DNA of 64,000 bases from an uncultured Thermoplasmata archaeon (GTDB lineage Archaea; Thermoplasmatota; Thermoplasmata; Halarchaeoplasmatales; Halarchaeoplasmataceae): positions 85,298 through 149,297 of the forward strand of contig CAYWJQ010000005.1 in NCBI GenBank assembly GCA_964458595.1, in the 5' to 3' direction. The position numbers were made by a program, and so were the translations under genes. The notes beneath the pieces are model-generated. The model was not told the origin of the DNA, searched no databases, and was given only the letters and a program-made list of their open reading frames with translations. Below are positions 7,974 through 57,556 of this stretch, one piece after another (the stretch's first letter is position 1; every line of letters begins with the position of its first letter).

Positions 7974-8180
7974 GCGATTTAAATATTTCGATTACGCCAA
8001 CAACCTTTCATATTCTCTATTTTTTTCTTCATAATTTTTGCCTTGTGAGCACAGCTTTTAAGAAAAATATCACACTTTCTCGGGCACACTCGATCCAAAC
8101 TTATGGTAATCATCCAAAACTTTATTAAGTTTCTTATTCGTACTGAAGGATTCAAAAAAGGTATTTCAGGCAAGATTAAA

Positions 8181-19009: not shown

Positions 19010-19810
19010 ATGCCAGACCTGAATATAGTGGTGCTTATCAAAGAAGTACCCGATATTGAGAACGTAAAGTTCGATAGAGAGAAAGGCAGGATAGACAGAA
19101 GTTCTGCTGAAGCCGAACCTAATCCTTTCGATCTCAACGCTTTAGAAGAAGCGGTGAAGTTGAAGGAAGAACTCGGTGGCAAAATAACGGTATTGAGTAT
19201 GGGCCCGTCAAAGGCAAAAGAGACTTTGAGAGAAGCACTATCGAGAGGGGCTGACGAGGCTATACTCCTGACGGACAAAAACTTCGCCGGATCGGACACT
19301 TGGGCGACTTCTTACACGCTCGCCGCCGCTGTAGAAAAGATCTGCGATTACGACCTGATATTGTGTGGAGAGAAAAGTGTTGACGGAGATACCGGTCAGG
19401 TCGGGCCGGAGATAGCCGAGATATTGGGCATACCACACATCGCGTTCGTCAACGAAGTGAAGAAAAGAGGAAAAGAAAAGATAACGGTCGGTTCCGAAAC
19501 TTGGGACAGGAGTTATGTTAGAGATATCGAATATCCCGGCTTGATAACCGTCACCAAAGACGTGAATGAACCAAGACTCCCTTCACTGCAGGACAAGTTA
19601 GACGCTAAGAACGCCGATATCGAAGAATGGGGTGTCGATGAACTTGACGCAGGAGAAAAAGACATGGGTGCATCCGGTTCTCCTACAGCAGTGGTGAACA
19701 TAGAAGTTCCCGAGAAAAAAGGAAGGAAAAGTAAAATCTTCGAGGGTGAAACGGAAACGGCGGTCAAAGAACTGCTAAACGAGTTGGAAAAAGACGTGGG
19801 AGGCATCTAA
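19010..19810 (+). CDS. etfB: Electron transfer flavoprotein beta subunit
   Basis: 266 aa. IVVLIKEVPD, NPFDLNALEEA and the remaining EtfB fold motifs are present. Confidence 0.85.
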   Translation: MPDLNIVVLIKEVPDIENVKFDREKGRIDRSSAEAEPNPFDLNALEEAVKLKEELGGKITVLSMGPSKAKETLREALSRGADEAILLTDKNFAGSDTWATSYTLAAAVEKICDYDLILCGEKSVDGDTGQVGPEIAEILGIPHIAFVNEVKKRGKEKITVGSETWDRSYVRDIEYPGLITVTKDVNEPRLPSLQDKLDAKNADIEEWGVDELDAGEKDMGASGSPTAVVNIEVPEKKGRKSKIFEGETETAVKELLNELEKDVGGI

Positions 19811-19811
19811 G

Positions 19812-20798
19812 ATGGCGTACGGTCCGGAGAAAAGTTCTGGAGTTTGGATACTCGCGGAACAGCAAAAGGGAAAGATTCACCCTGTAACTTTTGAGCTTTT
19901 GCAAAAGGGTAGGGAATTATCGGATGATCTCGATACTAACCTCACCGCCGTCTTATGTACTCCAGATAAGGAAAAAACTCAAGAATTGATCTATAGAGGA
20001 GCAGATAGAGTCATTTTGGTGGAAGACGAAAATTTTGACGAACCCGATGAATCGTTCTTCAAGGAGAATATCGTTGAATTGATTGAAAACGAAAAACCGC
20101 ATATCTTTTTGATAGGAGCTACGAATTTCGGTAGATCTTTAGCTCCGAGGATAGCGGCGGCTTTGGAAACAGGTCTGACCGCCGACTGCACCGGGTTAAG
20201 GATCAAAGACGGAGACTTCGTTCAGATCCGACCCGCTTTTACTGGCAATATCCTCGCACACATATCTACTGACAGATGCCCAAAGATGGCGACCGTGAGG
20301 TACAAGGAGTTCGAAGAAAGCGAAAGAGATACTGAAAGAGACGGAAAAATCGTCCAGAAAGCACCTCTAGAAAAAAAAGAGGATGATGGTATAAAAATCA
20401 TAAAGGAAATAGTCGAAGAAAGTGTAAATATTCAGGATGCAGAAGTGGTCTGTTCGGGAGGAAGAGGTCTTGAAGATCCAGATGATTTTGAACTTATAGA
20501 AAAGTTAGCCTCCGCTTTGGGCGGAAAAGTCGGATCGAGTAGACCATTAGTTGATGAAGGCTGGATAAGCAGAGATCACCAAGTTGGATACAGCGGGAAC
20601 CGAGTCAAACCAAACATATACATCGCCTGTGGTATTTCTGGGGCGCCTCAACATCTCGCCGGTATGAAAGAATCGGATATAATAATAGCGATAAATAAAG
20701 ATCCTTCAGCACCTATTTTCAAGCACGCGGACTACGGCATCGTGGGTGATCTTTATGAAGTGGTTCCCGAGCTGATAAAGCAGATAAAAGAAAGATGA
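19812..20798 (+). CDS. etfA: Electron transfer flavoprotein alpha subunit
   Basis: 328 aa with the FAD-binding C-terminal domain (VCSGGRGL, IYIACGISGAPQHLAG). Its start overlaps the etfB stop. Confidence 0.85.
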   Translation: MAYGPEKSSGVWILAEQQKGKIHPVTFELLQKGRELSDDLDTNLTAVLCTPDKEKTQELIYRGADRVILVEDENFDEPDESFFKENIVELIENEKPHIFLIGATNFGRSLAPRIAAALETGLTADCTGLRIKDGDFVQIRPAFTGNILAHISTDRCPKMATVRYKEFEESERDTERDGKIVQKAPLEKKEDDGIKIIKEIVEESVNIQDAEVVCSGGRGLEDPDDFELIEKLASALGGKVGSSRPLVDEGWISRDHQVGYSGNRVKPNIYIACGISGAPQHLAGMKESDIIIAINKDPSAPIFKHADYGIVGDLYEVVPELIKQIKER

Positions 20799-22022
20799 TC
20801 ACTTGACTATAGGCACCACGTTGTTTGCCTCATCCACATCGACGATGTGGGGTTCTTTTTTAGACACGCATTCTTTAACTTCGTCTAAAGCCTCATCTAC
20901 GCTATCGAACGGTTCACAGAAGCAGTTCTCTATTATTTCATCATCAAGGTCACTGACTATGAACAGAGAGTGATCTTCTAAAAATTTGAGGATGTTGGTG
21001 GCTTTGTGTCCACCGAACGGATAATCTCCATAAACTTCATCGATTATCTCATCGCGATCGTCGGAAGAGGACAAAAGATCGTAAAAAGTTCTTGGTCCTA
21101 TACCCTCGTAACACTCGCTGACCATTATCAGTACGCCACCATCTCGACAGATCTGCTTGGTATTTTCGAAGCTCTTGAACGATTGGTACAGATTTTTAGT
21201 GCCCGGTTCCGCCGTCCTAGCTATCACGATATCCGCTTTTTGACTTACTTCGGCGGTGAAGATATCTTTAGCAGTTTCGATCAGCTCATCGAAAGAATAG
21301 AAGAAATCGCCAGCTGAAACTTCGTAAACTTTTTCCGAAGTGGAAACGCTGTTTATACTCGATATCTTGCTCTCTAGATGGTCGATTATCATCTCAGCGG
21401 CTTCCAAAGCGTCCAGATTGATCGGATTTTCATCCAATGAAAGAGGTAAAGAATTTTCATCTAAGGAGAACTCATGGTTCTCGACAATAGTGTCCCAGTG
21501 GCATACTCCGGGTAGGAGAGATTTCCTACCTCCCGTAAAGCCGGCAAAGTAATGCGGCTCGACGGAGTTGATATTAATTATCCTATCGTAACCTAAAATA
21601 TTCTTATCTGCCTTTACCGGAGTTCCTCGACTGGTCTCGCCGATCTCGATATGTTCGTTCTCTTGACAATCATGGATGATCGTTTTAGATTCCAACTCCT
21701 CGTAATATTTACCCAATATCTTCTTCAAGCCTTCCTCCGTGGGAGGATCGTGAGTACCTGTGGCCACAATCACGTTCAACTCCCGGTTGAAGAGATCCAT
21801 CCCATTCTCTTCGAGATGTTCATCTAGAGTTTCCAGAAACAGAGATGTCGGTGTGGCGCGCTTGAAATCGTTCACTATGAAAAGCAGGCTATTTTCACCT
21901 ATAAAATCGGCGAGAGACTCATGATCTGAATTCAATAGTTCCTCATAATTTTTTTTGATCTCTTCTTTATTCATCCCTTCAGCGGTTCGATCTAAGCCTA
22001 TTTTTTCTATCTCATCATCCAT
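20799..22022 (-). CDS. larA: LarA-family (lactate racemase-like, DUF2088) nickel-pincer enzyme homolog
   Basis: 407 aa. NDFKRATP, HYFAGFTGGRKSLLPG (candidate cofactor-tethering Lys) and TGTHD are characteristic of the LarA family. Confidence 0.7.
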   Translation of the reverse strand: MDDEIEKIGLDRTAEGMNKEEIKKNYEELLNSDHESLADFIGENSLLFIVNDFKRATPTSLFLETLDEHLEENGMDLFNRELNVIVATGTHDPPTEEGLKKILGKYYEELESKTIIHDCQENEHIEIGETSRGTPVKADKNILGYDRIININSVEPHYFAGFTGGRKSLLPGVCHWDTIVENHEFSLDENSLPLSLDENPINLDALEAAEMIIDHLESKISSINSVSTSEKVYEVSAGDFFYSFDELIETAKDIFTAEVSQKADIVIARTAEPGTKNLYQSFKSFENTKQICRDGGVLIMVSECYEGIGPRTFYDLLSSSDDRDEIIDEVYGDYPFGGHKATNILKFLEDHSLFIVSDLDDEIIENCFCEPFDSVDEALDEVKECVSKKEPHIVDVDEANNVVPIVK

Positions 22023-22043
22023 CCTTTCACGATCCTGATATGA

Positions 22044-23510
22044 TCAAATTTTGATATGCTCTTCTTCCATCTCTTCGTCCTTTGAGATGAGCTTTCCCGG
22101 ATTCAATATATGGTCGGGATCGAAGGTGTTCTTTATCCCGTTCATCAGCTGCAGCATCTTGTCGCTTTTGAATTTTCTCAGCTCCGGCTTTTTGATTAGA
22201 CCTATACCGTGTTCACCGGTGATCTCTCCGCCCATTTCTACCGCGGTTTCGATCCATCTCTCTCTAAGACTCTCGACTTCATCCCAGTCGATATCCTCAT
22301 CAGGCAAATTACCTTCGATATGAACGTTACCGTCTCCGGCGTGTCCGAACGCGTAGAAAGTCCCTTCTACTTCGGACTCATCAAATATCTCTCTAGCTTT
22401 CGAGATGAATTCGGGTATCTTGGACGGAGGAACTACGAGATCTCCAGAGCGGTGGCCTGTCACGTTTCCTTCTTGGATCACTTCAGCTACACCTTCCCTT
22501 ATCTTCATTATCTTGTTCATCTCTTTCCGTTTTGTAGCGAGGAAGGCGTCGAGTGCTCCTTTTTCCTGACACACTTCCATGATCTTTTGAGCTTTTTCTA
22601 GTATCTCGTTTTCTTCCTCTCCGGTGACGATTATCATCAAGGTCGCTTCCCCTTTTTCAGCGGGCCAGCTCTCACCGACTTTGTCTTCACCGCTAGAGAT
22701 CGTTTCTCTTTCTAAATATTCTATTCCCGCAGGAGTGATCCCGCTTCTCAGTATTTCAGGCACGGCATTAATCGCGTTTTCACCTGATTCGAAGGGGAGT
22801 ATCACAAACTTAGATTCTTCGGAGGCCGGATAAAGTCTTAAAATCGCTTTTGTTATTATACCTAAAGTCCCTTCACTGCCTATCATCAGATGGAGTAAAG
22901 AATATCCCGTGTTATCCTTCAATAGTTTTCCGCCCAGCTCCATGATCTCTCCATCTGGAAGTACGACTTCTAGACCTTTCACGTAATCTCTCATGACGCC
23001 GTGTTTTAGGGTCGCTTCTCCTCCCGCGTTGACCGCAATAGTTCCACCGATCTGAGAGTCTTCCGTGGTGGGATGTATGGGAAGTGTAAGCCCTTTCTCT
23101 TCTACCTTTTCCTTCAATTTTTCCATCGGAACACCGGCGGCTACTTCCACCATCAGGTTATCTTCGTCCACATCTACCTTATCATCCAATCTTTCCAACG
23201 ATAAGCCGACACCGCCGTAGACGGGGATCATACCTCCCATCAAGCCGGTCTTTCCGCCGATCGGGGTAACGGGAACGAGATTATCGCTGGCCAATCTCAT
23301 TATCTTCGATACTTTTTCTGAAGAGTTGGGTTTTACCAATACCTCCGGATATTTTCCTTTAACTTCCGCAGTCGAAAGCTCGTCATGGGTATAACTATCC
23401 ATGAGGTCTTTATCCGTGATAACAAAATCCGAACCGCATATATTTTCCAATTCGTTGATGATCTCTTCGTCGACTTCGTTATATTTTGGCCTTTCATCCA
23501 TCAAAATCAC
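22044..23510 (-). CDS. glcD: FAD-linked oxidase, GlcD/D-lactate dehydrogenase family
   Basis: 488 aa with a PCMH-type FAD-binding domain (PIGGKTGLMGG) and an FAD-oxidase C-terminal domain (GHAGDGNVH). Confidence 0.8.
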   Translation of the reverse strand: MILMDERPKYNEVDEEIINELENICGSDFVITDKDLMDSYTHDELSTAEVKGKYPEVLVKPNSSEKVSKIMRLASDNLVPVTPIGGKTGLMGGMIPVYGGVGLSLERLDDKVDVDEDNLMVEVAAGVPMEKLKEKVEEKGLTLPIHPTTEDSQIGGTIAVNAGGEATLKHGVMRDYVKGLEVVLPDGEIMELGGKLLKDNTGYSLLHLMIGSEGTLGIITKAILRLYPASEESKFVILPFESGENAINAVPEILRSGITPAGIEYLERETISSGEDKVGESWPAEKGEATLMIIVTGEEENEILEKAQKIMEVCQEKGALDAFLATKRKEMNKIMKIREGVAEVIQEGNVTGHRSGDLVVPPSKIPEFISKAREIFDESEVEGTFYAFGHAGDGNVHIEGNLPDEDIDWDEVESLRERWIETAVEMGGEITGEHGIGLIKKPELRKFKSDKMLQLMNGIKNTFDPDHILNPGKLISKDEEMEEEHIKI

Positions 23511-24499: not shown

Positions 24500-24645
24500 C
24501 TAAGTTTACAGTTTGTAAAGATATTCTTTCAGTATTAATATTTTTTTAACGCTAAAATCAAAGATTTTGCCTAATCACTTTTTTCAGGAAACTAGAGCCG
24601 TTAGAACCAAAGGTTCTAACAAACCACTAAAAATCAAATATTTGT

Positions 24646-25262
24646 TAGTGGACTCGTCAGAAGCTAAGCTTCTAACTGCCCATTAAAACAAGTTTTGAGG
24701 AAAAACAACACTCTTTCCTCAACTCACTCGTTCAAAGAACTCGTGATTTAATGGACCCATCAGAATCAAAGATTCTAACTAACCATTTTTCATAGAAAAA
24801 TGGACCCAGCGGGACGAGGGAATTTTTGTAGAAAATTGCCGAGCAAGAGGAATCTTTGATTCCTCGTGTTTCAAATCCCGCGGTGCACTGAGCGGATGCG
24901 AAGTGGACCCGTCAGAAGCGAAGCTTCTAACTGCCCATTAAAACAAGTTTTGAGGAAAAACAACACTCTTTCCTCAACTCACTCGTTCAAAGAACTCGTG
25001 ATTTAATGGACCCATCAGAATCAAAGATTCTAACTAACCATTTTTCATAGAAAAATGGACCCAGCGGGACGAGGGAATTTTTGTAGAAAATTGCCGAGCA
25101 AGAGGAATCTTTGATTCCTCGTGTTTCAAATCCCGCGGTGCACTGAGCGGATGCGAAGTGGACCCGTCAGAAGCGAAGCTTCTAACTGCCCATTAAAACA
25201 AGTTTTGAGGAAAAACAACACTCTTTCCTCAACTCACTCGTTCAAAGAACTCGTGATTTAAT
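24646..25262. repeat. Tandem direct repeat of a 255-bp unit in about 2.4 copies, containing hairpins and degenerate copies of the tRNA-Ala 3' end
   Basis: Units start at 24648, 24903 and 25158 (period 255). Copies A and B differ at 2 positions. Copy C runs directly into the tRNA-Ala gene at the shared motif aatggaccca. Confidence 0.9.
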
Positions 25263-25362
25263 GGACCCAGCGGGATTTGAACCCGCGGCCTTCACCTTTC
25301 TTGCCACCACATTATTCCAGTAGGATGCAAGGGTGACGATCTGCCAACTGATCTATGGGCCC
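25262..25362 (-). tRNA. tRNA-Ala (anticodon UGC) with a 28-nt canonical intron between positions 37 and 38
   Basis: Manual fold of the reverse complement: acceptor GGGCCCA/TGGGTCC with the G3:U70 Ala identity pair, D-arm GATC/GATC, anticodon stem TCACC/GGTGA, loop CT-TGC-A, intron TCCTAC...GGCAAGAA whose GGCAAG segment can pair with the anticodon-loop CTTGC (BHB-like), T-arm GCGGG-TTCAAAT-CCCGC and discriminator A. Confidence 0.8.
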
Positions 25363-25587
25363 TGAACGAGCACTTGCGAGTGAAGGGCGCATAGATATTT
25401 GGAGCTTTGCTCCGAAACAATCTATGGGCCAAACATAACTCATGCGATTGAAATGAGTTTTCAGTCGCAGTGTAGTGCCATGCCAACAAAAATGCATGCG
25501 CCCCATTTCAACACTGCGAATAGGAACTTATGTATATTTTAAAAGAAATACGACACAATAAAGTATTTTTGTCTTCAAAACCAGTAT

Positions 25588-25899
25588 TCAGCTTTGAAGT
25601 ACGATCTCGATATGAACTTCGTCGGGAACTTGAATACGCATCAGCTGTCGCAGCGCTCTTTCGTCTGCGTCGATATCGATCAATCTTTTGTGGACTCTCA
25701 TCTCCCAGCGTTCCCAAGTTTCGTTTCCTTCGCCGTCCGGTGATTTTCTGCAGGGAACGGTCAATTCCTTGGTCGGCAGTGGGATAGGTCCTTTCATCTC
25801 CACTCCTGTTCTATCGGATATCTCACGGATCTGACTGCAGATCTCTTCTATCCTTTCTGGATTGGTTCCGCTTAACGAGATTCGTGCTTTCTGTGCCAT
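25588..25899 (-). CDS. rps10: 30S ribosomal protein S10 (uS10)
   Basis: 103 aa with [21 protein letters not shown]...GPIPLPTK. Confidence 0.9.
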
Positions 25900-30468: not shown

Positions 30469-32952
30469 TCACATGGATATCGGTATGTTTTCCATCTCTT
30501 TTTCTACTTTCTCGGCCATCCAGTTGGCGCCGCTGCCGGAAAACGATAGGATAGCTTTTCTATAATTTTCCGCTATTCCTTCCTTATTATCTTTACTTTC
30601 CTGAAGTTTAGCCATGGAAAAGTACGCTAATCCGAGTCTATATGAAGAACCGATCCTTTGGTAAATAGATATCGCCTTGGTGAATTGTTCCTCAGCTTTT
30701 TCGGGTTTATCTGCCATCCTGTAAGCCTTGCCGAGCAGCGTGTACGCGTAGGCTTTCTCCTTTTCGTCGTCCAAATCGCCGAGAAGTTCCTTCGCCTCTT
30801 CAGCCGTTTCTATGGCCTTTTCCAACTTATTTTTTTCCAAATAACATTCGGTCAAAGATAATAGGGCGGATGATTTGAGATCCCAATAGCCGAACTTTTC
30901 CGAGGTATCGACGGCATCTTTCAAATAATCCTCCGCATTCTTCAGTTCTCTAAGTATGGTGTATAGAGCCCCTATCTCTTTAAGACCGCCTACTTTCTGA
31001 TACGTTTCTTTTATCTGCTTCCAGTGATCCAATCCTTTCTGAAAGAAGGAAACGGAATCATCCCAATCTCCGTTCAATTTCTTGATCCTGGCGAGCATGA
31101 AGTAAGCCGTCGTCAATAGAGAATGATCATCTTCGCCCAGGGCGTTCAAAGCCTCGTAGAGATTCTCCTCGGCTTCTACACGTTTTCCTCTCTCGTTCAA
31201 TAACGATCCCAACCTGAAGAAGGCTTTTCCCGTGAATTTCTTTCTCTCTGAAGCGGAGTCTATCTCGGCCGCTTTATCTACTGATTTCTTGTATTCGGAG
31301 ACCGCCTGGTCATATTCTTGTCGATTTTCTTTTGTAGAAGCTATCCCCAAGTGAGATCGAACTTCGAGGACCTTGTCTTCCACGTTTTCTATGATCTCAC
31401 GATAAGACTCTAAAGCTCGGTCGTAATCATCCACCTTGCGGGATGCTTCGGCTTTGATGAAACCTATGTGATGATCTTCGGTATTTTTTTCCGTTTCAAA
31501 TCCGTCTATCAGATCTATCACGGTTTCATAATAGCCTGAAGAAACTATCTCTTCACCGTGATCTTTCACCTTTTCCTCGAACAGACCGTATTTGTTCGCG
31601 TTCAAAAGATGATAAAGTTCTTCGAGCTTCTGGCCCGCCTTGGCCATAGGTCTTTCCATATAATATTGAGAAGCGATCTCGTGTAATCGACGCTTATCCT
31701 CCAGCCTCAAGTATTTAACGATCTCTTTTCTTACGACCTTTGGAACTCCGACCTCGTTATCGACCGTGGACTCCATCAAAGGCGTATCCAATATATTGTC
31801 GACCATCTTAGGGGTTACGGTCTCGAGCCGGGTCAGTTCCTTTTTTTTCACCGGTTCTCTGAGGATAGATAGAAGAGCTAAAGACCAAAACTCCTCTTCG
31901 GTGATGTGGTTTTCCAATACTGTCTTCAAAGAATCTATCTCTTCCTGCTCGGAGTAACTATCCCTTAAAGCATCTAAAAAATAATCCTCGTTTTTCAGCT
32001 CTACCGTATAGTGATCGTCTAAGGATATATCATCCATCTCAGGAGAAAGGGCTATAATTGAGATCGTAGTTCCCATATCTAAAGTAACGATGTCTTCTAT
32101 GATTTGAGATATCTCCTCGTTTGAATAGATATCATCGAATATCATCAAGGACTTTATCTCTTTGAGATCTTTCTCTAGATTTGTGATCAAACCTTTTCTA
32201 TCAAGTTTAGCCGTCGATTTGAGATAAGAAGAAAGTCGATGCTGACCGCATAACTCTAAAAATTCAGATATCTTATCCCACAGATGCATCGGTTCCTGCC
32301 AATCCTTCGTTTCAAAATAAAAAACGTTGTTTTTACCGTCCATCTTTTTGGCTAGTTTACTCAAAAGGGTGGTTTTGCCGCTCCCTTCTGGACCCACCAC
32401 CGCTATCAGATCCTCTACATGCTCCCAATTGTCTAAAAGGTCTTCCAATTCAGGTATCGCCCTATCGTCAGGCTCGGGCATCTCGTCGAGATAAGAATCA
32501 GTAGAACCCTGTTCATGTTCACTGTCAAGTTCGAAGATATCTTCTTCTTCAACTTTCCTGATTATATCTAGAACAGAGATATTGGTCTGAAAATAAGTGT
32601 TTATCTCCCCAATATTCATCTTTTTCTTTTCCCCTTCTAGGGAGACTTCTACTTCGGTATTTAGCATCTCGTTTCTGATATCTCTAGCCTTTTTTATCCC
32701 GCTGTCCGTGAGAAAATAGGCCTTTCTCTTCTGTTTTTTTCCCTTGATCCGGCGGGTCTCTTCTTTCATGAAACCATCTTCGACCAATTTTCTCACGGCG
32801 TAAGAAACGGTATTTTGTTTGAGACCGACACTGTCGGCGATACCTTCCTGAGTTATCTCGACCGGAAGTGAATAACCATCTTCCTTTCCGTAATAATCGA
32901 GAATATGTACTATCACTTTTTCCTTTGCGGTGAAGTTTGCATCCATATGCAA
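30469..32952 (-). CDS. STAND-like NTPase with an N-terminal winged HTH, a central archaeal-ATPase (P-loop) domain and C-terminal TPR repeats
   Basis: 827 aa. The wHTH (GIADSVGLKQNTVSYAVRKLVEDGF) is followed by Walker A GPEGSGKTTL and Walker B MIFDDIY, and the C-terminal ~400 aa are TPR-like (repeated A..YY.LG/A.Y). Confidence 0.6.
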   Translation of the reverse strand: MHMDANFTAKEKVIVHILDYYGKEDGYSLPVEITQEGIADSVGLKQNTVSYAVRKLVEDGFMKEETRRIKGKKQKRKAYFLTDSGIKKARDIRNEMLNTEVEVSLEGEKKKMNIGEINTYFQTNISVLDIIRKVEEEDIFELDSEHEQGSTDSYLDEMPEPDDRAIPELEDLLDNWEHVEDLIAVVGPEGSGKTTLLSKLAKKMDGKNNVFYFETKDWQEPMHLWDKISEFLELCGQHRLSSYLKSTAKLDRKGLITNLEKDLKEIKSLMIFDDIYSNEEISQIIEDIVTLDMGTTISIIALSPEMDDISLDDHYTVELKNEDYFLDALRDSYSEQEEIDSLKTVLENHITEEEFWSLALLSILREPVKKKELTRLETVTPKMVDNILDTPLMESTVDNEVGVPKVVRKEIVKYLRLEDKRRLHEIASQYYMERPMAKAGQKLEELYHLLNANKYGLFEEKVKDHGEEIVSSGYYETVIDLIDGFETEKNTEDHHIGFIKAEASRKVDDYDRALESYREIIENVEDKVLEVRSHLGIASTKENRQEYDQAVSEYKKSVDKAAEIDSASERKKFTGKAFFRLGSLLNERGKRVEAEENLYEALNALGEDDHSLLTTAYFMLARIKKLNGDWDDSVSFFQKGLDHWKQIKETYQKVGGLKEIGALYTILRELKNAEDYLKDAVDTSEKFGYWDLKSSALLSLTECYLEKNKLEKAIETAEEAKELLGDLDDEKEKAYAYTLLGKAYRMADKPEKAEEQFTKAISIYQRIGSSYRLGLAYFSMAKLQESKDNKEGIAENYRKAILSFSGSGANWMAEKVEKEMENIPISM

Positions 32953-34487: not shown

Positions 34488-35270
34488 TTAATTTTCTTTT
34501 CTAGCGACTGCCGCGACACTTTCATCGTCGGGCGAGTATTGACTTGACGTTTTGATACCTAAGATAAAACCGGTGAAATCGGCTTTGACTGGTTTTTCGT
34601 TCAACACCCCTATAGTTTCACCTTCTTCTATTCTATCGCCGGGCTCTTTCTTTGGTTCGAAGTGACCTTCTTCTTCAGGCGTCAGTCTTTCGTAGTGATT
34701 ATAAAAGGTAGTTTCTTCCGCCGGTTCTTTAGAGTAGTTTTCTAGCAAAAGACTGAGGACGGCATCTTTGACTCTTTCCAGTTCCTCCCTGTAACGTTCC
34801 GCTCCTCCTGCTTCGATGATCATAGATGGAATACCGAGGTCGGACGTCTCTAAGAACAACTGTCCACCGGTGCCTCCGGTCTGGACAGCGTTGTTCAAAC
34901 CGATCTTTTTACAGAGTTCTATATTATGATCCTTTCCTAGATCTGTCAGCATGTACGGAACACACCAGCTGTTCTTTCCGTAGGTATGGAGATCTATGAT
35001 TCGATCGAATGTTTTAGCTTTCTTGAAGAGCCGATGAGCTATCCGTTCGGATTTTGTACCTCCTTCATCTCCGGTAAATATCCTGTTCAGATCTTTTCCG
35101 TCTTCTGGGTTCTCTCTCTGTTTATTTTCTACCGCTGTCAGATTCACCTCGGGTATCACTTCTACGCGGTCGATATCTCTGCTCTCGACCCAGCCTTTTA
35201 TCTCTCTGGCTACTAGAACGGAACCGATCTCAGCGCCGTGGACTCCGGCGGTGATAAGTGTCTTCTTCAT
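34488..35270 (-). CDS. Succinylglutamate desuccinylase/aspartoacylase-family Zn hydrolase
   Basis: 260 aa with the N-terminal GVHGAE Zn-binding motif, DLH and the overall AstE/AspA architecture. Confidence 0.65.
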   Translation of the reverse strand: MKKTLITAGVHGAEIGSVLVAREIKGWVESRDIDRVEVIPEVNLTAVENKQRENPEDGKDLNRIFTGDEGGTKSERIAHRLFKKAKTFDRIIDLHTYGKNSWCVPYMLTDLGKDHNIELCKKIGLNNAVQTGGTGGQLFLETSDLGIPSMIIEAGGAERYREELERVKDAVLSLLLENYSKEPAEETTFYNHYERLTPEEEGHFEPKKEPGDRIEEGETIGVLNEKPVKADFTGFILGIKTSSQYSPDDESVAAVARKEN

Positions 35271-35357: not shown

Positions 35358-36986
35358 ATGATGAACGTACTCGGTGTCCACGACGGCCACGATGCGGGCG
35401 CGGCATTGATTCACGGCGAATATATCCATGCCGTGAACGAAGAACGCCTGAGCGAGGAAAAATATCACAGAGGCTTTCCGGAACGTTCGGTCAGAGAAGT
35501 GAGGAGATTATCCGGGTTGGACGCGGAAGAAATCGATATAGCGGCGGTCTCTGGGATCTACAGGAAGAAAAAGCGGCTTTTAACTCTGAAGAAAAACCTT
35601 GAGGAACTACTCGGAGATATCGAGATCGTGACCGTCCATCACCATAAAGCTCACGCGGCGGGAGCTTACTTCACCTCGGGATGGGATAGAAGTTTAGTGC
35701 TTACCATCGATGCGGCTGGAGACGGGCTCTCCTCAGGAGTCTATCTTGGAGATGATGGCGAGCTAAAAAAGATTGCTGAATCCTCTTACCTAGATTCTCT
35801 GGGAGATTTTTACGCCTCGATAACCGAGATGTTAGGTTTTATTCCGATGAGGCATGAAGGCAAAGTGATGGCCTTGGGCGCTTACTACGAGGGGAAAGAC
35901 TACCACGACTTCTCCAACTGTATCCAAGTGGATGGTTTAGGCTTCGATAATTTGCTCGAAGTCACCGGATCTGAATCGGTAAAAGAACTTTCAGAAAAAG
36001 TAGATTTTCCCTTGAATCGTAAGGAAGAATGTTCGAACGTGCTCAAAGCCGGTAAAAGAGACCATGAACTGTGGGGTAAAGCCGTGAAAATCGCAGCTTC
36101 CGCTCAGAAGCATCTCGAGGATTTGCTTGAACAATTGTGTGAGAATCTCAAAGAAGACGAGAGGATAGGAGAAGAATTCAAGCAGAACATCTGCTTTTCA
36201 GGCGGCGTAGCTCAGAACGTGAAAGCTAACAAAATTGTGAGAGAGAATTTCCAGAACACCTACATATTTCCACATATGGGTGACGGAGGACTCGCTTTGG
36301 GGGCGGCTTTAGATGTAAATCAAAGGTCAAACGACGGAGATGACTTTTGGGATTGGAAGACGAGTTCGGACAGCGTATATCTCGGTCCCAAGTTCGATCA
36401 GAATCGGATAAAGAGTCTGCTGGATGATGACGGTCTTGAGTGGAAGACGATAGAAGGGAAGGCCGATACAGCTTCCTCTTTATTGAGTGAGGGGAAAATA
36501 GTCGGTATATTCCAAGGAAAGATGGAATACGGTCCTAGAGCTCTCGGAAACAGGTCTATATTAGCCGACCCTTCGAAGCGAGAGATTAAGGAAAAACTGA
36601 ATCAAATGCTGGGTAGAGAATCTTTTCAACCTTTTTCTCCGACCATTTTGAAAGGATATGAAGACGAATATCTAAAATCTCCCGACTCGAACAAGTTCAT
36701 GACCATGTCTTTCGATATCACTGAAAAAGCCAAAAAGGATCTTGAAGCCGCTGTACATCTCGACAATACCTGCAGACCTCAGATATTGGAGAGAAAAGAT
36801 AATCCAGTCTTTTATGATCTGATAAAAGCATTTGAAGAAAAAACCGGTACTGGAGCGGTGCTAAACACGAGCTTCAATCTCCACGGCGAACCGATCGTCT
36901 GTACGCCGGAAGAAGCTTTAGATTCATTCAAAGAGATCGGACTCGATGCTCTGATTTGCGAAAATTATCTTATCAAGAAAAAATAA
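35358..36986 (+). CDS. Carbamoyltransferase, NodU/CmcH/TobZ family
   Basis: N-terminal ASKHA/Kae1-like domain (LGVHDGHDAGAALI, NEER) followed by a C-terminal carbamoyltransferase domain. Start taken at ATG 35358 (MMNVLG). Confidence 0.75.
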   Translation: MMNVLGVHDGHDAGAALIHGEYIHAVNEERLSEEKYHRGFPERSVREVRRLSGLDAEEIDIAAVSGIYRKKKRLLTLKKNLEELLGDIEIVTVHHHKAHAAGAYFTSGWDRSLVLTIDAAGDGLSSGVYLGDDGELKKIAESSYLDSLGDFYASITEMLGFIPMRHEGKVMALGAYYEGKDYHDFSNCIQVDGLGFDNLLEVTGSESVKELSEKVDFPLNRKEECSNVLKAGKRDHELWGKAVKIAASAQKHLEDLLEQLCENLKEDERIGEEFKQNICFSGGVAQNVKANKIVRENFQNTYIFPHMGDGGLALGAALDVNQRSNDGDDFWDWKTSSDSVYLGPKFDQNRIKSLLDDDGLEWKTIEGKADTASSLLSEGKIVGIFQGKMEYGPRALGNRSILADPSKREIKEKLNQMLGRESFQPFSPTILKGYEDEYLKSPDSNKFMTMSFDITEKAKKDLEAAVHLDNTCRPQILERKDNPVFYDLIKAFEEKTGTGAVLNTSFNLHGEPIVCTPEEALDSFKEIGLDALICENYLIKKK

Positions 36987-37044
36987 GAGATGAATAAAAA
37001 AACATATATGTTATAAACCCATAAAACTTCGTAGAGGGTGGATC

Positions 37045-37809
37045 ATGACCGAAAAGGAAAGCAAATTCAAGGGGTTAAGAAAGTTCAATGCGTTTATGGC
37101 CGTTTTACATTTTATACAGGGAGCTTTGATGGTATATCTGAGTACGGATTTCGCCATCTCGATTACCAGTTCATACATGGCGGGACCGCCGGGCACTGAA
37201 GAAACCGCTACAGTCGTACTTTTCGATGTACCGGTAGGACTGGCAGTCGCCGGTTTTCTCTTCATCTCCGCTATAGCCCATTTCTCACTGTCAACTTTCG
37301 CATACGATTGGTATAAGAGGAATCTCAAGAACCACATAAACAAAGCCAGATGGGTAGAATATTTCTTCAGCAGCTCTCTGATGATAGTCATAATAGCGAT
37401 GCTCGTTGGCTTCACTGATATAGGCGTACTTATCGCTTTATTCCTGGTGAACGGTTCGATGATACTGTTCGGATGGCTGATGGAAGCCTACAACCAGAAT
37501 ACTGAAAAAACCGTGTGGTCACCTTTCATATTCGGATGTATAGCAGGGGCGGCTCCATGGATAGCTATCGCTATCAGACTTTTCACGGCGATCTCAGAAT
37601 CCCCGGTAGAGGTGCCTAGTTTCGTTATATGGATATTCGTCTCTCTGTTCATATTCTTCAATATATTCGCCCTAAACCAGTTACTGCAGTACAAGAAAGT
37701 GTGGAAATGGGAAGACTATCTCTACGGCGAGAAGATGTACATCGTGTTGAGTTTGGTTGCGAAATCGGCATTGGCCTGGCAAGTTTTCTCCGGAACTTTA
37801 GTGGGATAA
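37045..37809 (+). CDS. Heliorhodopsin (inverted-topology microbial rhodopsin)
   Basis: 254 aa with 7 TM. It shares diagnostic blocks with characterised heliorhodopsins: NGPPGT-like AGPPGT, N(K/R)ARWVEY, SMILFGWL, WIAIAI and the TM7 retinal-Lys region YIVLSLVAKSALAWQVFSGTL. Confidence 0.8.
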   Translation: MTEKESKFKGLRKFNAFMAVLHFIQGALMVYLSTDFAISITSSYMAGPPGTEETATVVLFDVPVGLAVAGFLFISAIAHFSLSTFAYDWYKRNLKNHINKARWVEYFFSSSLMIVIIAMLVGFTDIGVLIALFLVNGSMILFGWLMEAYNQNTEKTVWSPFIFGCIAGAAPWIAIAIRLFTAISESPVEVPSFVIWIFVSLFIFFNIFALNQLLQYKKVWKWEDYLYGEKMYIVLSLVAKSALAWQVFSGTLVG

Positions 37810-37811
37810 AA

Positions 37812-38490
37812 TCACTTCTTTCCTTCTATCTCTTTTTTCAACCTGTCAAAAAAAGTTTCCATGAATTTTTGTCTTTCCTCGGCGATCTCTTTAGCATTCT
37901 GGGTATGAAGATTAGAGACTATCTTTTTGAGTTTCATCTCGTACTCGAGATTCGGTGCGTGTTTCCGTATTTCTTTCACTCTCCCGTTTTCTTTAATATT
38001 TTCTTCAGCATATCTTTCTAGATCGATATCTCGATACAGCACTTCTTCATACTCTCCGGCCAGCATGAAAGCCCTAGCTATCCCAACAGCTCCCACAGCA
38101 TCCAACTTATCCGCATCAGAGAGTATCTTCGCCTCTTCGGTCTCGGGTTTTTTATCAGATTTGAACCTGTGCGTCTCGATACAGTGCTTTATCTTTTCTA
38201 TCTTTTCTTCTTCGTAACCTTCCTTTTTCAAAACATCCTCTGCCATCTCCGCCCCCCAAAATAGCGTGATCTATCTCACCGGTCTCATCCTCGTCCTCCT
38301 TCACTCTTGCGATATCGTGAAGCAAAGCCGATGGGAAAAGGACATCTCTATCCACATCATCATCTGAAATCTCTTTAGCCAATCTATAGACTCTCTCGGT
38401 ATGACTCACGCCGTGAGAAGAAGTCGATAATTTTCCCCTAGCTTTTTTCCAGACATCTTCGTATCTCTCTTCTATCTCCATCCGCATCAC
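37812..38490 (-). pseudogene. HD-domain phosphohydrolase gene split by a +1 frameshift in a G6/C6 homopolymer
   Basis: The N-terminal ORF 38155-38490 carries H..H (HGVSHTERV) and HD (LLHDIAR). The C-terminal ORF 37812-38246 carries the rest of the HD fold (SDADKLD). Removing one C from the C6 run at 38262-38267 fuses the two frames as ...DHAILG-AEMAEDVLK.... Confidence 0.65.
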
Positions 38491-38503: not shown

Positions 38504-39988
38504 TCAGCCGAAGTTCTTTATCGAAACTTTATTGTTGCTCGGATCTAAAACGATCACTTTAGCGGGATCGGGATTTATATCTCTCATCTTCTGGTATTCG
38601 GTCTGTTCCTGCCATGTAGACGAGTTGACAAGTACGATACCATGATGATCTTTTACGTCGGCACTATGAACGTGGCCAGTGATGAATATATCCGGTATCT
38701 CTTCTATCGCGAGATGATCTTTCTCTTCAGGTGCTATAGATGTGCTCTTCCCGTAGACCGGAACTAAATGCCTTCTTTTCAGCATCTCGCGCTGAGCCGA
38801 GATAGGATCCTCACCGTCTACCTGCGGAAGCATATCCGATAGGTCGTTCATGCTCCCCCCGTGATACATCAAAAGTTTATAGCCCTCTAGTTCTACCAAC
38901 GACGGATTTCCAAAGAAAAGCACGTTTTCCGGAAACATCTCTTGGATGTCTTCGGGTAGAGCGGGCTGAGGCTCGGCGTTCCTCACTATATCGTGATTCC
39001 CGGGGATCGTTATTATGGTTATATCCTCGGGTAATTCGCTGAACATCTTGGCTATCTTCTCGTACTGTTCGTAGATATCGATTATATCCAGTTCCTTTTT
39101 CTGGTTCGGGAATATGCCGATACCGTCTATAAGATCGCCCGGGACGATAAGATACCTTATACTTTGAGCCAGTTCGTCATCTGAATTTATCCATGAAACG
39201 AACTCCTCCCATTCTTCTTCTAGAAAAGTATCGCTGCCGACGTGGATGTCTCCTAGAAATGCCATCTTTCCGGGAAAGTCGGGTTTCGAACCTTTGTTCA
39301 ACTTCGGTATCCCCGGCCTGGTTATCTCTTCTATAGCAAAGGTGTCATCAAAATTTCCATCGTTTTCCCATACTTCACCTTTTGCCAAGATCACTTCGTC
39401 TTCCAATATATTTTCGGTGAAGGCCTCGCTGTCGCTCGAAATGAATCCTCTGATCTCCCCTGTATCGTCTTCGAGAGTCAAGACCTTGTTGCCGTTAGAG
39501 GTAGAATGCACCTCTCGAACCATACCTATTACAGTAGCATCTCCTGCTCTTTTGGATACTCTCTTTATGGGCCTCGCCTTCTTCCCATCCCTTCTATTTT
39601 GGATGATAGACTTCAAAGTGTCAAACCTATCTTGGAAGTAATCACTGAAATCGTCGATGGTGCCCGTACAGGTCGATTCTCCAGAGATGTCTTTGAGTAC
39701 ATCTATACCTTCCATAGGATCTCTATCGAGATCGATCGAAGTCTCTTCTTTAGTCTTCTCTTTTATCTCTTCAGTCTCGTCCTCTTTCCCCTCTTCCAAC
39801 ATCTCGTTTACGTAGTAGGAAACGGTCTCTTTGCAGACGGGAAACGGAAGTTTATCATCTTCTTCTGTGAGCTTTTTGATTATCTCGGACGGATCATCCT
39901 GTTTATCCAAGTATTCCAATGCATCAGGGGTCAAAACGGTCTTGTTTTTTGCGAGTTCACTCACTATCCTGTCGCGCATTTCGATCAA
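38504..39988 (-). CDS. DNA polymerase II (PolD) small subunit DP1, a calcineurin-like phosphoesterase
   Basis: 494 aa with metallophosphoesterase motifs (GDIHVGS, GNHD, GHVH) and an N-terminal OB/regulatory region typical of archaeal DP1. Confidence 0.8.
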   Translation of the reverse strand: MIEMRDRIVSELAKNKTVLTPDALEYLDKQDDPSEIIKKLTEEDDKLPFPVCKETVSYYVNEMLEEGKEDETEEIKEKTKEETSIDLDRDPMEGIDVLKDISGESTCTGTIDDFSDYFQDRFDTLKSIIQNRRDGKKARPIKRVSKRAGDATVIGMVREVHSTSNGNKVLTLEDDTGEIRGFISSDSEAFTENILEDEVILAKGEVWENDGNFDDTFAIEEITRPGIPKLNKGSKPDFPGKMAFLGDIHVGSDTFLEEEWEEFVSWINSDDELAQSIRYLIVPGDLIDGIGIFPNQKKELDIIDIYEQYEKIAKMFSELPEDITIITIPGNHDIVRNAEPQPALPEDIQEMFPENVLFFGNPSLVELEGYKLLMYHGGSMNDLSDMLPQVDGEDPISAQREMLKRRHLVPVYGKSTSIAPEEKDHLAIEEIPDIFITGHVHSADVKDHHGIVLVNSSTWQEQTEYQKMRDINPDPAKVIVLDPSNNKVSIKNFG

Positions 39989-44774: not shown

Positions 44775-46253
44775 TCAAAAATCCATCACCATCTTCTCGT
44801 AATTTGCGGCCGATCTCTTGATCAAGGCGAAAAACACTAAAGCGCTGACGCCGGCCATGGATATCTCGGCTAAGAGGCCCCAAGAAGGGGATATCCTAAA
44901 GATATAAGCGGGTCCGCCGATGAAAACGACCGATGATATCAACCCGGTTACCATCGTCGTGTACATAGTGGTCACGTCCGGAGCCCCATTAGAACTCTCT
45001 TCAAAATTCGGAAACTTTACGGCGGCCCATATCCCCAGCCCGGTAAGAAGAAATATCATGAGGATTGAAGCAAATATCAAAAAGAAGAGTCTGTAAACCG
45101 AATAAGAGAGGACTAGAGGAAGGGGCAGAGCGATCAAAATCGTGATGACCGGGCTGTAAACCAATACGGCTAAGGCTTTACCCCAGAGGATGTCCTCCGT
45201 TTCCACCGGTACGGTTTTCAAGATCCAGAAAGCCTGTCCTTCTCTACCGAATAACGAGAGAGAAGGAAAGACTATCTGAAGGATAACGGCTAGAAAGATA
45301 GAGATTGTTATCAAAAGCGGATAGAGATACGGACCGAGTTCCAGGCCTAGATCAGGTGAAGGGCCGAGTTGAATATAAAAGAAGAACAGACCGACCGCTA
45401 TCATCCCCGTGACGGCTACGCCTGCTGGACTTTCTTTTCTGCGCCATCTGTCGAGTATCTCCTTTTCAGCCACCATCCTGGTCGAAAAGGGTATGTATTT
45501 CGGTAAAAAGTCACCCGGATCGTGAAATCTGAAACCTTCGTCGGTGGAGCTGGTGGTCCCATGTTTCCATGAACTCCAGAACAGGTCTTTAGAGAGAATT
45601 AAGAAGAGGGCGGAAACAGCGCCGAGGATGATCAGATAAAAAGAGGTCCTGGTTAGTGACATGTTTAGATGAAGAACGAACCATATGAGAGTCAGATTCT
45701 GACCGTAGATGAATAGAGGTACAAATTTTTTTAGGGTGCCCTTTATCTGAGTTATCACTCCGAGATTGAAACCTATGACGGGGGAGATGATGACCAAAAT
45801 ATAAAGTTCATAGAAGAAGGACTTACTGACTGGAGGGGCAAAGTCGAATAAAGGGATCAATACTGCGACGATCGAAAGAGAAATCGCCACGAGCAGAAGA
45901 TTATACCAGAACACTTTCAAAAATCTCGATAATTGGACTTGCCTGGTCGAGATAGAAGTAGAAAAATAATGTTTCAGTCTTTTATTCCTCAAAGTGTTTT
46001 CAACTGTTTCGACGGATGCCTTTGACATTATCACGAAAAATACGGTGAAGAGAACGTCGCTTTCGGAAAGCGTGATCAACGGATCTTCTATGCCCTTGGC
46101 CAACTCTACCATCATCAAGATAGTCCAAAATCCAACCACGAGAAGGATGATGAACCATCCGGTCATTATCGGTCTATCTTTGGTCCTGTACCTGAAAGCT
46201 CTAAAAGACTGCTTTACCTCGGTAGAGAAGAGCTCAAGCGTCCCTCCTTTCAT
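44775..46253 (-). CDS. ABC-2-type transporter permease (large polytopic membrane protein)
   Basis: 492 aa with about 10 TM. It overlaps the stop of the upstream ABC ATPase gene, which indicates an operon. Confidence 0.5.
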   Translation of the reverse strand: MKGGTLELFSTEVKQSFRAFRYRTKDRPIMTGWFIILLVVGFWTILMMVELAKGIEDPLITLSESDVLFTVFFVIMSKASVETVENTLRNKRLKHYFSTSISTRQVQLSRFLKVFWYNLLLVAISLSIVAVLIPLFDFAPPVSKSFFYELYILVIISPVIGFNLGVITQIKGTLKKFVPLFIYGQNLTLIWFVLHLNMSLTRTSFYLIILGAVSALFLILSKDLFWSSWKHGTTSSTDEGFRFHDPGDFLPKYIPFSTRMVAEKEILDRWRRKESPAGVAVTGMIAVGLFFFYIQLGPSPDLGLELGPYLYPLLITISIFLAVILQIVFPSLSLFGREGQAFWILKTVPVETEDILWGKALAVLVYSPVITILIALPLPLVLSYSVYRLFFLIFASILMIFLLTGLGIWAAVKFPNFEESSNGAPDVTTMYTTMVTGLISSVVFIGGPAYIFRISPSWGLLAEISMAGVSALVFFALIKRSAANYEKMVMDF

Positions 46254-46962
46254 TTTTTATCACTTCCACGAATACCTCTTCAAGGGAATCGGTTCCGGTT
46301 TTATCCATCAGTTCGGAGGGAGATCCCGTAACCACCAACCGACCGTTATCTATTATACCTACAGTATCGGCGATATCTTCCGCTACCGAAGTAATATGGG
46401 TGGTCATCAGGACCGTTTTATCGTCACGGGAAAATTCTGAAATCTTTTTCTTCATATATTGACTGTATCTCGGATCTAGTCCGACAGTCGGCTCATCGAG
46501 GATAAGATTCGGAGGGTCGTGTATTATAGCGTTGATGAAGAGTATCTTCTGCTTCATCCCTTTAGAATAGGCCCCCATCTCTGAATGCATCCTTTCGTCC
46601 AGTTCCAATTCCTCTGAAAACTCCTCTATCTTTTCTTTCAATGTACTTTCGTCTACCTGCTTAAGGGTGCCCATGATCTGCAAGAATTCCCTTCCGGTCA
46701 ACCTATCATAAAGATGTGGCTGTTCCGGCATGTAACCGAATCTTTTCTTTGAATCGACGTCTTCACTCACTTTCTTTCCGTCTATCAGAGCGGATCCGCT
46801 AGTCGATTCTAAAAGCCCGGTAAGTATCTTGATTATGGTAGTCTTCCCGGCTCCATTGGAGCCCAAAAGACAGAATATCTGATTACCCTCTACTTTAAAA
46901 TCGACGTCCTTAACGGCTTCGATCTTTCCATAACTTTTGCGAAGTCGCTTTATCTCTATCAT
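46234..46962 (-). CDS. ABC transporter ATP-binding protein
   Basis: Walker A GSNGAGKTT, the ABC signature region, Walker B ILDEPTVGLD and the H-loop. Confidence 0.85.
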   Translation of the reverse strand: MIEIKRLRKSYGKIEAVKDVDFKVEGNQIFCLLGSNGAGKTTIIKILTGLLESTSGSALIDGKKVSEDVDSKKRFGYMPEQPHLYDRLTGREFLQIMGTLKQVDESTLKEKIEEFSEELELDERMHSEMGAYSKGMKQKILFINAIIHDPPNLILDEPTVGLDPRYSQYMKKKISEFSRDDKTVLMTTHITSVAEDIADTVGIIDNGRLVVTGSPSELMDKTGTDSLEEVFVEVIKNERRDA

Positions 46963-57000: not shown

Positions 57001-57556
57001 TATAATCGCCTTCAGGAACTATCTCCTTGATAGTACCTTCAGTATCAGGAGGCACCATCACCTTATGATCTACGGTAGGAGTCTCTTCGACTATACCTAA
57101 AATATCTCCATGTTCGACCTCTTCCCCTTCTTCAGCTTTGGGTTTGAACTCCCATTCTTTTTCCTCGTCCAGTGGAGATACGTCGATACCTCTTCGGATG
57201 AAATCGCCGGTCTTCTCGACTATACTCTGAAGGGGTCTCTGGATGCCGTCATAGATCTGCTCTATGAGACCTGGGCCCAGTTCTAAAGATAAAGGTTCGC
57301 CCGTTCTCTTCACTGGTTCTCCCGGCTTGACTCCGCCGGTTTCTTCGTACACCTGGATAGTCGCGACGTCTTCTTCGAGCTCGATAACTTCGCCTATAAG
57401 ACCTTCTTCACCGACTTCTACGACCTCGTACATCTCCACGCCCTGTAGGTTATCGGCCTCTACGACCGGGCCGGCCACGTGGATAATCCTACCTTCACCC
57501 TCTTCTTCATCGGGTTTTTCGATCTTGCTTATACTTTCCTCAGCTTCTTCTACCAT
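54089..57556 (-). CDS. atpA: A1AO (V-type) ATP synthase catalytic subunit A, containing an intein
   Basis: The 1155-aa ORF gives exteins of 256 plus 374 aa with A-subunit motifs. The P-loop GGFGTGK|C is interrupted, and the extein resumes at HN|[10 protein letters not shown]. Confidence 0.95.
55214..56788 (-). mobile_element. Intein (525 aa) with a LAGLIDADG homing-endonuclease domain, inserted in the atpA P-loop (the VMA-a site)
   Basis: Begins with Cys right after GGFGTGK and ends ...FLHN, followed by Thr. Two LAGLIDADG blocks ([11 protein letters not shown] and GYYLADGSF) lie between the Hint N- and C-terminal splicing blocks. Confidence 0.85.

Follow-up and report, generated by a model that had tools for sequence, protein, structure and literature searches.

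The window analyzed here, a 64,000-nucleotide stretch of DNA, carries at 37045..37809 on the forward strand an intact ATG-to-TAA open reading frame of 254 amino acids, in agreement with the position and length given in an earlier note made from the sequence alone. The reverse strand of this interval is packed with stop codons. Upstream, on the same strand, lies a gene encoding a NodU/CmcH-family carbamoyltransferase (35358..36986), which ends 58 nt before the ATG of the reading frame. Divergent from it is a gene of the AstE/AspA (succinylglutamate desuccinylase/aspartoacylase-like) family (34488..35270, reverse strand; Pfam PF24827, 1.6e-26). Downstream, in convergent orientation, an HD-domain phosphohydrolase gene (37812..38490, reverse strand) has its stop codon 2 nt from that of the reading frame, and is followed by the gene for the small subunit (DP1) of DNA polymerase D (38504..39988, reverse strand), an archaeal marker with the Pfam domains DNA_pol_E_B and Metallophos and an OB fold. 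An ABC transporter pair is located at 44775-46962, about 7 kb off and not adjoining the gene under study.

The encoded protein matches a single Pfam family, Heliorhodopsin (PF18761), with an E-value of 2.8e-102 and 341.6 bits against a cutoff of 26.7, the match extending over residues 11-252 and over profile positions 1-242 of 242. It scores 348.8 bits against the NCBIfam equivalog model NF038020, 'heliorhodopsin HeR' (cutoff 100), and its best phmmer matches among the PDB sequences are 48C12 (6su3; 5e-73) and TaHeR (6is6; 1.6e-72), to which it is about 52% (over 247 residues) and 50-52% identical, respectively. These results confirm the heliorhodopsin identity that the earlier note had proposed from three sequence blocks. 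All three occur in the protein, with ARWVEY spanning residues 101-106, MILFGWL spanning 139-145, and YIVLSLVAKSALAWQ spanning 232-246. The same note had claimed an absence of type-1 rhodopsin motifs, and no type-1 rhodopsin Pfam family was found in the reading frame at E<=0.01; the positions of BR D85 and D212 are occupied by Glu and Ser, rather than by Asp as in type-1 rhodopsins. Among 8000 candidates scored, at least 7218 are relatives of the protein at E<=1e-10, and several of the close ones have already been named 'heliorhodopsin HeR' by the NCBI pipeline. An identical protein, left unnamed, is encoded by NCBI assembly GCA_905333435.1 and by two Logan run assemblies, and the DNA of all three is 100% identical to the window. 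Judged from its sequence, the gene is a genuine, intact and typical heliorhodopsin of a large known family.

The residues on which heliorhodopsin photochemistry depends were assessed by alignment with 48C12 and TaHeR. A list of 38 structurally important residues of 48C12 was taken from PMC7049168 and mapped onto the window protein, which is identical to 48C12 at 35 of these positions. The key codons are those for H22, H79, R102, the counterion E105 (37357-37359), S236, and the Schiff-base lysine K240 (37762-37764). The TM7 lysine pairs with K241 (48C12) and K238 (TaHeR), and the TM3 glutamate with E107 and E108, respectively, as expected by the earlier note for a heliorhodopsin. In helix 7, S236-L-V-A-K240 forms the SxxxK motif that by definition contains the Schiff-base lysine (PMC9601134); its counterparts in the alignments are S237...K241 in 48C12 and the lysine of TaHeR, and the K240 column is invariant in 47 homologues. 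E105 is the single helix-3 counterion and S75 and S109 are the stabilising serines, identical to E107, S76 and S111 of 48C12, so that the RSB-stabilising set of S236, E105, S109 and S75 is kept. The polar Schiff-base cavity on the cytoplasmic side, described in 48C12 as His23, His80, Asn16, Tyr92, Asn101, Arg104, Tyr108, Glu230 and the Glu149 region (PMC7049168), is identical in the window protein (H22, H79, N15, Y90, N99, R102, Y106, E229), including the Glu149 region (E147, Q215, Y225). The mapped residues of the retinal pocket are likewise identical to those of 48C12 (W103, M139, I140, F205, Q212, N136), and the surface polar clusters are kept.

An AlphaFold2 model built on 47 homologues (mean pLDDT 92.8) predicts seven helices and a beta-hairpin AB loop at residues 37-63, with strands at 37-45 and 54-63. 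Foldseek comparison of the predicted model gave TM scores of 0.89-0.93 and rmsd values of 1.6-2.1 A to 6is6, 7clj and 6su3, versus TM scores of only about 0.6, at 10-17% identity, to type-1 rhodopsins. Lysines and arginines are concentrated in the N-terminus and the BC, DE and FG loops (15 of 17), whose homologues in 48C12 are cytoplasmic, and none is present in the AB, CD and EF (outer) loops. By the positive-inside rule only, this charge distribution fits an inverted topology in which the N-terminus would be cytoplasmic.

Some members of the family move protons, and transport of the type found in the viral protein V2HeR3 needs E191 in helix 6, W195 and E205, with E191 as its hallmark (PMC9448325). 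In favour of a light-driven or light-gated proton transporter like V2HeR3, the window protein is from that family and has both the counterion Glu and the E229 equivalent. However, the V2HeR3 positions, mapped via I199, F203 and Q213 of TaHeR, correspond to L201, F205 and Q215, so that the hallmark glutamate, the gate Trp and E205 are all replaced by residue types seen in the non-transporting TaHeR and 48C12; nor does the protein group with the viral subfamily in a neighbor-joining (NJ) tree. Proton transport was ruled out on these key residues, and we consider it extremely improbable. With non-transporting residue types at the V2HeR3 positions, the protein most likely functions as the characterised prokaryotic heliorhodopsins do.

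The upstream gene encodes a protein of about 542 aa from its likely start, the longest open reading frame beginning at 35238. The true start is probably 35358, which matches the gene call at 8312 in the identical contig L001. The protein contains both carbamoyltransferase domains of Pfam (Carbam_trans_N, 3.4e-34; Carbam_trans_C, 4.9e-62), in line with the NodU-type carbamoyltransferase reported upstream by the earlier note. It reaches only 121 bits against the NodU equivalog model, far under the cutoff of 1000, and we therefore name the gene only as a NodU/CmcH-family carbamoyltransferase. It belongs to a block of conserved synteny, AIRS-TMP synthase-AIRS-STAND/TPR regulator-GAN-AstE-carbamoyltransferase-heliorhodopsin, which includes the divergent AstE/AspA-family gene and is common to the window and six other genomes of the order.

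This arrangement raises the possibility that the heliorhodopsin is a light-dependent regulator of the carbamoyltransferase, comparable to the heliorhodopsin-glutamine synthetase pair, in which case light would be linked to a carbamoylation step. The two genes lie on the same strand, 58-94 nt apart, both in the window and in six further species-level genomes (L004, L005, L009, L010, L011 and L012). The pair is intact in L009 and L012 despite DNA inserted between AstE and the carbamoyltransferase gene, and it is kept where the downstream neighbour differs. However, the seven genomes are all from a single order, and the synteny block that they have in common is much longer, so the adjacency is explained by common descent. 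Three of the ten clade members (L006, L007 and L008) lack the adjacency, and none of about 70 loci outside the order has a carbamoyltransferase gene within 10 kb of the heliorhodopsin gene. Carbamoyltransferases are also not among the ten recurrent neighbour and partner classes of heliorhodopsins (PMC11109279), and none of these ten classes adjoins the heliorhodopsin gene in the window.

The gap between the two genes contains an A-rich and TATA-like element, aataaaaaaacatatatgttataaa (36993..37017, forward strand), situated 28-52 nt before the ATG, which is a candidate archaeal BRE/TATA promoter. When the aligned upstream regions are inspected by eye, most of the ten orthologous loci show a similar AAAAA-n-TATATAT element at the same distance (about 30-50 nt before the ATG), among them the three with a different upstream gene, and its retention without the carbamoyltransferase gene further counts against a regulatory pair. 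A Shine-Dalgarno-like sequence, GAGGGTGG (37034..37041, forward strand), lies 4-11 nt before the ATG, and the orthologous loci have GAGGG(T/A)G or GAGGAGA at the same position. Since the promoter-like and Shine-Dalgarno-like motifs are kept whatever the upstream gene, we read the heliorhodopsin gene as its own, apparently monocistronic transcription unit with a putative promoter in the gap. An operon with the carbamoyltransferase gene was rejected as the main reading on account of this element, the restriction of the adjacency to one order and its loss in three of the ten clade members, and we regard a regulatory link between the two proteins as unlikely. On this reading, the gene context names no partner.

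Downstream, the HD gene is split over two frames, as the earlier note had observed. Its two open reading frames, 37812-38246 and 38155-38490, each match Pfam HD, and are separated by a +1 frameshift at a G6 run (a C-run on the forward strand) at 38252-38257. Deletion of one G yields a 222-aa HD protein, to which the intact orthologues of L004 and L010 are collinear; it resembles the PRK10119 phosphohydrolase model with a score under the model cutoff. A sequencing error was rejected as unlikely because the same G6 run recurs in a MAG contig from NCBI and in two run assemblies made independently. These three sequences are probably from one project, and are compatible with either a population-level or a fixed variant. 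The downstream neighbour of the heliorhodopsin gene changes among the close relatives: HD and PolD genes are found in the window, L004 and L010, LSM and Mrp antiporter genes in L005, L009 and L012, a PLP enzyme gene in L007, and a thioredoxin gene in L006 and L008. A functional link between the heliorhodopsin and the HD gene, which is frameshifted here and adjoins in only two other genomes, was also rejected. The suggestion of the earlier note that the neighbours might help to frame functional hypotheses is poorly supported, given the gene's own conserved promoter-like element and the variable downstream gene.

The window has a GC content of 44.6%, and its 55 open reading frames have a median pI of 4.87, with about 20% D+E in most of them. 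Archaeal markers in the window include the PolD small subunit, TFB, aEF-1alpha, aIF-1A, NAC and TiaS, together with a GAN-type DHH nuclease, a preflagellin peptidase and an A-type ATPase operon. Both lines of evidence uphold the earlier description of the host as an archaeon with an acidic proteome. The nearest genomes are labelled as uncultured Thermoplasmata, Ca. Saliniplasma and Ca. Natronoplasma, and the host is accordingly assigned to Ca. Halarchaeoplasmatales/Haloplasmatales, an order of salt-in halophiles (PMC11332174, bioRxiv 10.1101/2023.07.03.547478). Two related MAGs were recovered from Great Salt Lake sediment, in an anoxic interval 30 cm deep (PMC11287216). Since close relatives come from dark, anoxic hypersaline sediment, a light-dependent role is ecologically awkward.

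The heliorhodopsin itself follows the acidic trend of the proteome only in part. The earlier note had interpreted E/D-rich loops as an adaptation to high salt, and this claim is borne out weakly: the shift is in the expected direction, but it is modest. The outer loops contain 7 acidic and no basic residues, compared with 4 acidic residues in those of 48C12 (manual count), and the protein has about 5-6 acidic residues more than 48C12 or TaHeR. The median pI is 8.2 for the ten heliorhodopsins of halophilic Thermoplasmata, 9.2 for 66 other heliorhodopsins, and 9.7 for those of Halanaerobiales. With 16 D+E (6.3%) against 17 K+R and a pI of 7.8, however, the protein cannot be called E/D-rich. A small acidic shift is usual for integral membrane proteins.

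The heliorhodopsin gene is intact and under strong purifying selection, with a dN/dS of 0.039 against the L004 orthologue and 0.047 against the L005 orthologue. It is conserved above any of its neighbours; in L005, it shows 86% identity versus 49-71% for the flanking genes. These values bear on the possibility that a dark-sediment anaerobe unable to make retinal has kept the protein as a relic, or uses it in the membrane independently of light. Known cleavage of beta-carotene to retinal requires O2, and no carotenoid oxygenase, lycopene cyclase, phytoene synthase or desaturase was detected with Pfam in any of the 55 open reading frames of >=80 aa in the 64-kb window, which is a small part of the genome. 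The adjoining HD gene is decaying, and relatives have been found in anoxic sediment down to 30 cm (PMC11287216). Nevertheless, a relic would not keep such constraint (dN/dS about 0.04), the conserved promoter-like element, and a Schiff-base lysine, a counterion and retinal-pocket residues that are invariant across the clade to which the protein belongs. The depth at which a MAG was recovered is also uninformative on where the cells are active, and we find a relic very unlikely.

The protein clusters with heliorhodopsins, and not with other 7TM families, as anticipated in the earlier note. Its phylogenetic position was assessed in an NJ tree with 200 bootstraps of the heliorhodopsins from 80 genome loci together with 48C12 and TaHeR. 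It falls inside a clade of ten sequences from halophilic Thermoplasmata (97% bootstrap). The sister group, supported at 99.5%, is made up of six Halanaerobiales/Bacillota MAG sequences; the node uniting both groups has 99%, and a sequence from a 'Hadarchaeia' MAG lies outside both of them (85%). TaHeR and other Thermoplasmatota heliorhodopsins are found elsewhere in the tree. Tyr179 and Pro40 have been called highly conserved in heliorhodopsins (PMC7049168). Tyr179, a dimer contact, is changed to Arg or Lys in all 17 clade members, compared with Tyr in 49 of 66 other sequences, and Pro40 is lost in 16 of the 17, compared with Pro in 56 of the 66 others. With Asp125 retained, it is a reasonable inference that Arg178 of the window protein could form a salt bridge with Asp125' across the dimer.

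These observations suggest, tentatively, a distinct hypersaline-sediment clade of heliorhodopsins, marked by the Tyr179 and Pro40 changes, that may have moved between domains; we treat such a clade as a possibility on the doubtful side. It is the sole mildly unusual aspect of the locus. Heliorhodopsins have been described as confined to monoderms (PMC8612252, bioRxiv 10.1101/2025.11.27.691015, PMC9601134), and Halanaerobiales are treated as diderm (PMC8612252). Should the hosts in Halanaerobiales indeed be diderm, this clade would contradict the 'monoderm-only' rule and the exogenous-carotenoid rationale resting on that rule. A search for diderm markers near a Halanaerobiales heliorhodopsin gene found nothing informative in the ten flanking open reading frames of L015. 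A cross-domain clade, if true, would suggest that heliorhodopsins can be of benefit to anaerobes in brine sediments that are largely dark and anoxic.

The abundance of carotenoids in hypersaline habitats counts in favour of another reading, namely that the protein is mainly a light-harvesting, two-chromophore rhodopsin binding an exogenous xanthophyll via a lateral fenestration. A 2025 preprint put forward such a xanthophyll antenna for heliorhodopsins as a whole (bioRxiv 10.1101/2025.11.27.691015). The conserved fenestration Asn is present in the window protein (N136), and A169 replaces the bulky Ile170 that narrows the opening in 48C12. On the other hand, the proposal is based on docking and has been shown for no prokaryotic heliorhodopsin (bioRxiv 10.1101/2025.11.27.691015), and an antenna leaves the use of the absorbed energy unexplained. 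The protein's extracellular half is hydrophobic and without transport residues. The occurrence of the sister clade in Halanaerobiales, treated as diderm, also runs against the rationale of the hypothesis. We consider a mainly light-harvesting function improbable.

The reading that we prefer, and hold to be probable, is that the gene product is a canonical heliorhodopsin of the 48C12/TaHeR type in a salt-in halophile among the Thermoplasmata archaea, a non-transporting retinal pigment that would act as a light-dependent modulator of a partner protein in the cytoplasm or the membrane. The gene would be transcribed alone from the conserved promoter-like element. By analogy with 48C12 and TaHeR, the protein would bind all-trans retinal and absorb green light near 545-555 nm; the retinal would probably be imported from the carotenoid-rich hypersaline surroundings, uptake being suggested by the lack of a biosynthesis gene nearby. 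Light would isomerise the retinal, and the Schiff-base proton would pass into the water-filled cytoplasmic cavity without crossing the membrane. A long-lived intermediate may then alter the cytoplasmic surface and so modulate the partner by direct binding. Heliorhodopsin partners acting by light-dependent binding include glutamine synthetase, photolyase and an ABC transporter (PMC9529153, PMC9769723, PMC11109279). The window protein most likely acts as a light sensor or regulator of this kind and not as a transporter, with its photochemistry and regulatory mode extrapolated from homologues at 52% identity.

Taken alone, the locus is of little weight, since heliorhodopsins are very common and close relatives of this one have already been annotated. 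It could supply biophysics with a salt-adapted heliorhodopsin whose host has a salt-in cytoplasm, it adds one case of a gene neighbourhood in this lineage that does not disclose a partner, and it opens a way into the hypersaline clade that Halanaerobiales also belong to, of relevance to the claim that heliorhodopsins are restricted to monoderms.

Among the systems with known partners, AbHeR-glutamine synthetase, TfHeR-photolyase and OcHeR-OmrDE ABC transporter involve proteins of the same family and, likely, the same mode of action by light-dependent partner binding. They differ from the window in that their partner genes are not adjacent here and the heliorhodopsin gene appears monocistronic. 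Thermoplasmatota heliorhodopsins have been known since the discovery of the family. The most similar are heliorhodopsins annotated automatically in MAGs of halophilic Thermoplasmatota, among them Ca. Natronoplasma and Ca. Saliniplasma, which share 74-92% identity and the same length with the window protein, as well as the same promoter-like element and mostly the same synteny; no experimental work on these proteins was found in the literature searched.

TaHeR, from Thermoplasmatales archaeon SG8-52-1 (6is6, 7u55), comes from the same phylum and agrees with the window protein in its counterion, its lysine and histidines, and its residue types of the non-transporting kind (I199, F203 and Q213 in TaHeR), and it has a fold matching the predicted model with TM scores of 0.89-0.93. 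It nevertheless lies in a separate clade of the tree, and so is not the nearest relative despite the shared phylum, and the AB loop and helix D motif of the window protein (NGSMILFGW, versus TAVMNLMGL in TaHeR) are closer to those of 48C12. The actinobacterial 48C12 (6su3, 6uh3) and the window protein agree at K241/K240, E107/E105, S237/S236, H23/H22 and H80/H79 (48C12/window), at R104/R102, N138/N136 and Q213/Q212, and in a GPPGT-type AB loop, and the predicted model matches 48C12 with a TM score of 0.90. The differences include the change of Pro40 to Ser and of Ile170 to Ala169 at the fenestration, and the replacement of the dimer-contact Tyr179 by Arg178, which faces the conserved Asp125, so that a salt bridge may take the place of a hydrogen bond. 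Finally, the 10 acidic residues of 48C12 compare with 16 in the window protein, the host of which is a halophilic archaeon.

The HD phosphohydrolase gene that lies convergent to and downstream of the heliorhodopsin gene (window 37812-38490, minus strand) carries a +1 frameshift in a homopolymer, a run of six G residues on the minus strand at 38252-38257. The same frameshift recurs in three further public assemblies from this population; at L004 and L010, two loci of related halophilic Thermoplasmata genomes, the HD phosphohydrolase orthologues are intact.

The synteny block upstream of the heliorhodopsin gene includes a regulator gene (30469-32952, minus strand) whose 827-aa product combines HTH, STAND-type NB-ARC/AAA and TPR regions; six related genomes keep this regulator in the block at 49-76% identity. 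The entire Halarchaeoplasmatales block is also shared by contig JBKHKA010000008.1 (locus L009), which is recorded as 'Candidatus Aenigmatarchaeota archaeon', while NCBI attributes its heliorhodopsin to Ca. Natronoplasma sp., so that a binning or labelling error in the record is likely.

The genes for EtfB and EtfA, with an adjoining LarA-like lactate racemase and FAD-linked oxidase (19010-23510), form an arrangement that resembles the Etf-dependent lactate utilisation of anaerobes and is consistent with fermentative life in sediment. A 101-nt tRNA match (25262-25362, minus strand), positive in Rfam and negative in ARAGORN, sits inside a gap without ORFs (24500-25588), and this Rfam-only match is probably an archaeal tRNA gene with an intron. 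An Lhr-type helicase (8103-13565, plus strand; DEAD, Helicase_C, WH_Lhr and DEAD_assoc domains) and an AlkZ-like DNA glycosylase domain form a single fusion protein, whose 1820 aa exceed the usual length of an archaeal Lhr.

Two A/V-type ATPase genes on the minus strand were also noted. Subunit A (54089-57556) reaches 1155 aa because its nucleotide-binding domain is interrupted by an intein that contains a LAGLIDADG endonuclease domain. The 632-aa c/K subunit (59691-61589) comprises a signal-like N-terminus followed by six tandem ATP-synt_C hairpins, and has an additional domain of ~110 aa with a weak PKD match. Hairpins 2-5 carry a PETQ-type motif, the E is replaced by Q in hairpin 1, and hairpin 6 has SETF; the GC content of this gene region is 51%, versus 44.6% for the window.

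The sister group of the window's heliorhodopsin clade is found in five MAGs labelled Halanaerobiales or Halanaerobiaceae (L013-L016 and L019), four of which fall in the NJ clade together with L017, the fifth being L019. These MAGs come from separate studies, on contigs of up to 118 kb, and the heliorhodopsin lies at about 10001-10753 in both L014 and L015. Envelope markers were sought in the ten ORFs flanking the L015 gene, and none was found there. Heliorhodopsins have been described as limited to monoderms, whereas the order Halanaerobiales is regarded as diderm (PMC8612252).
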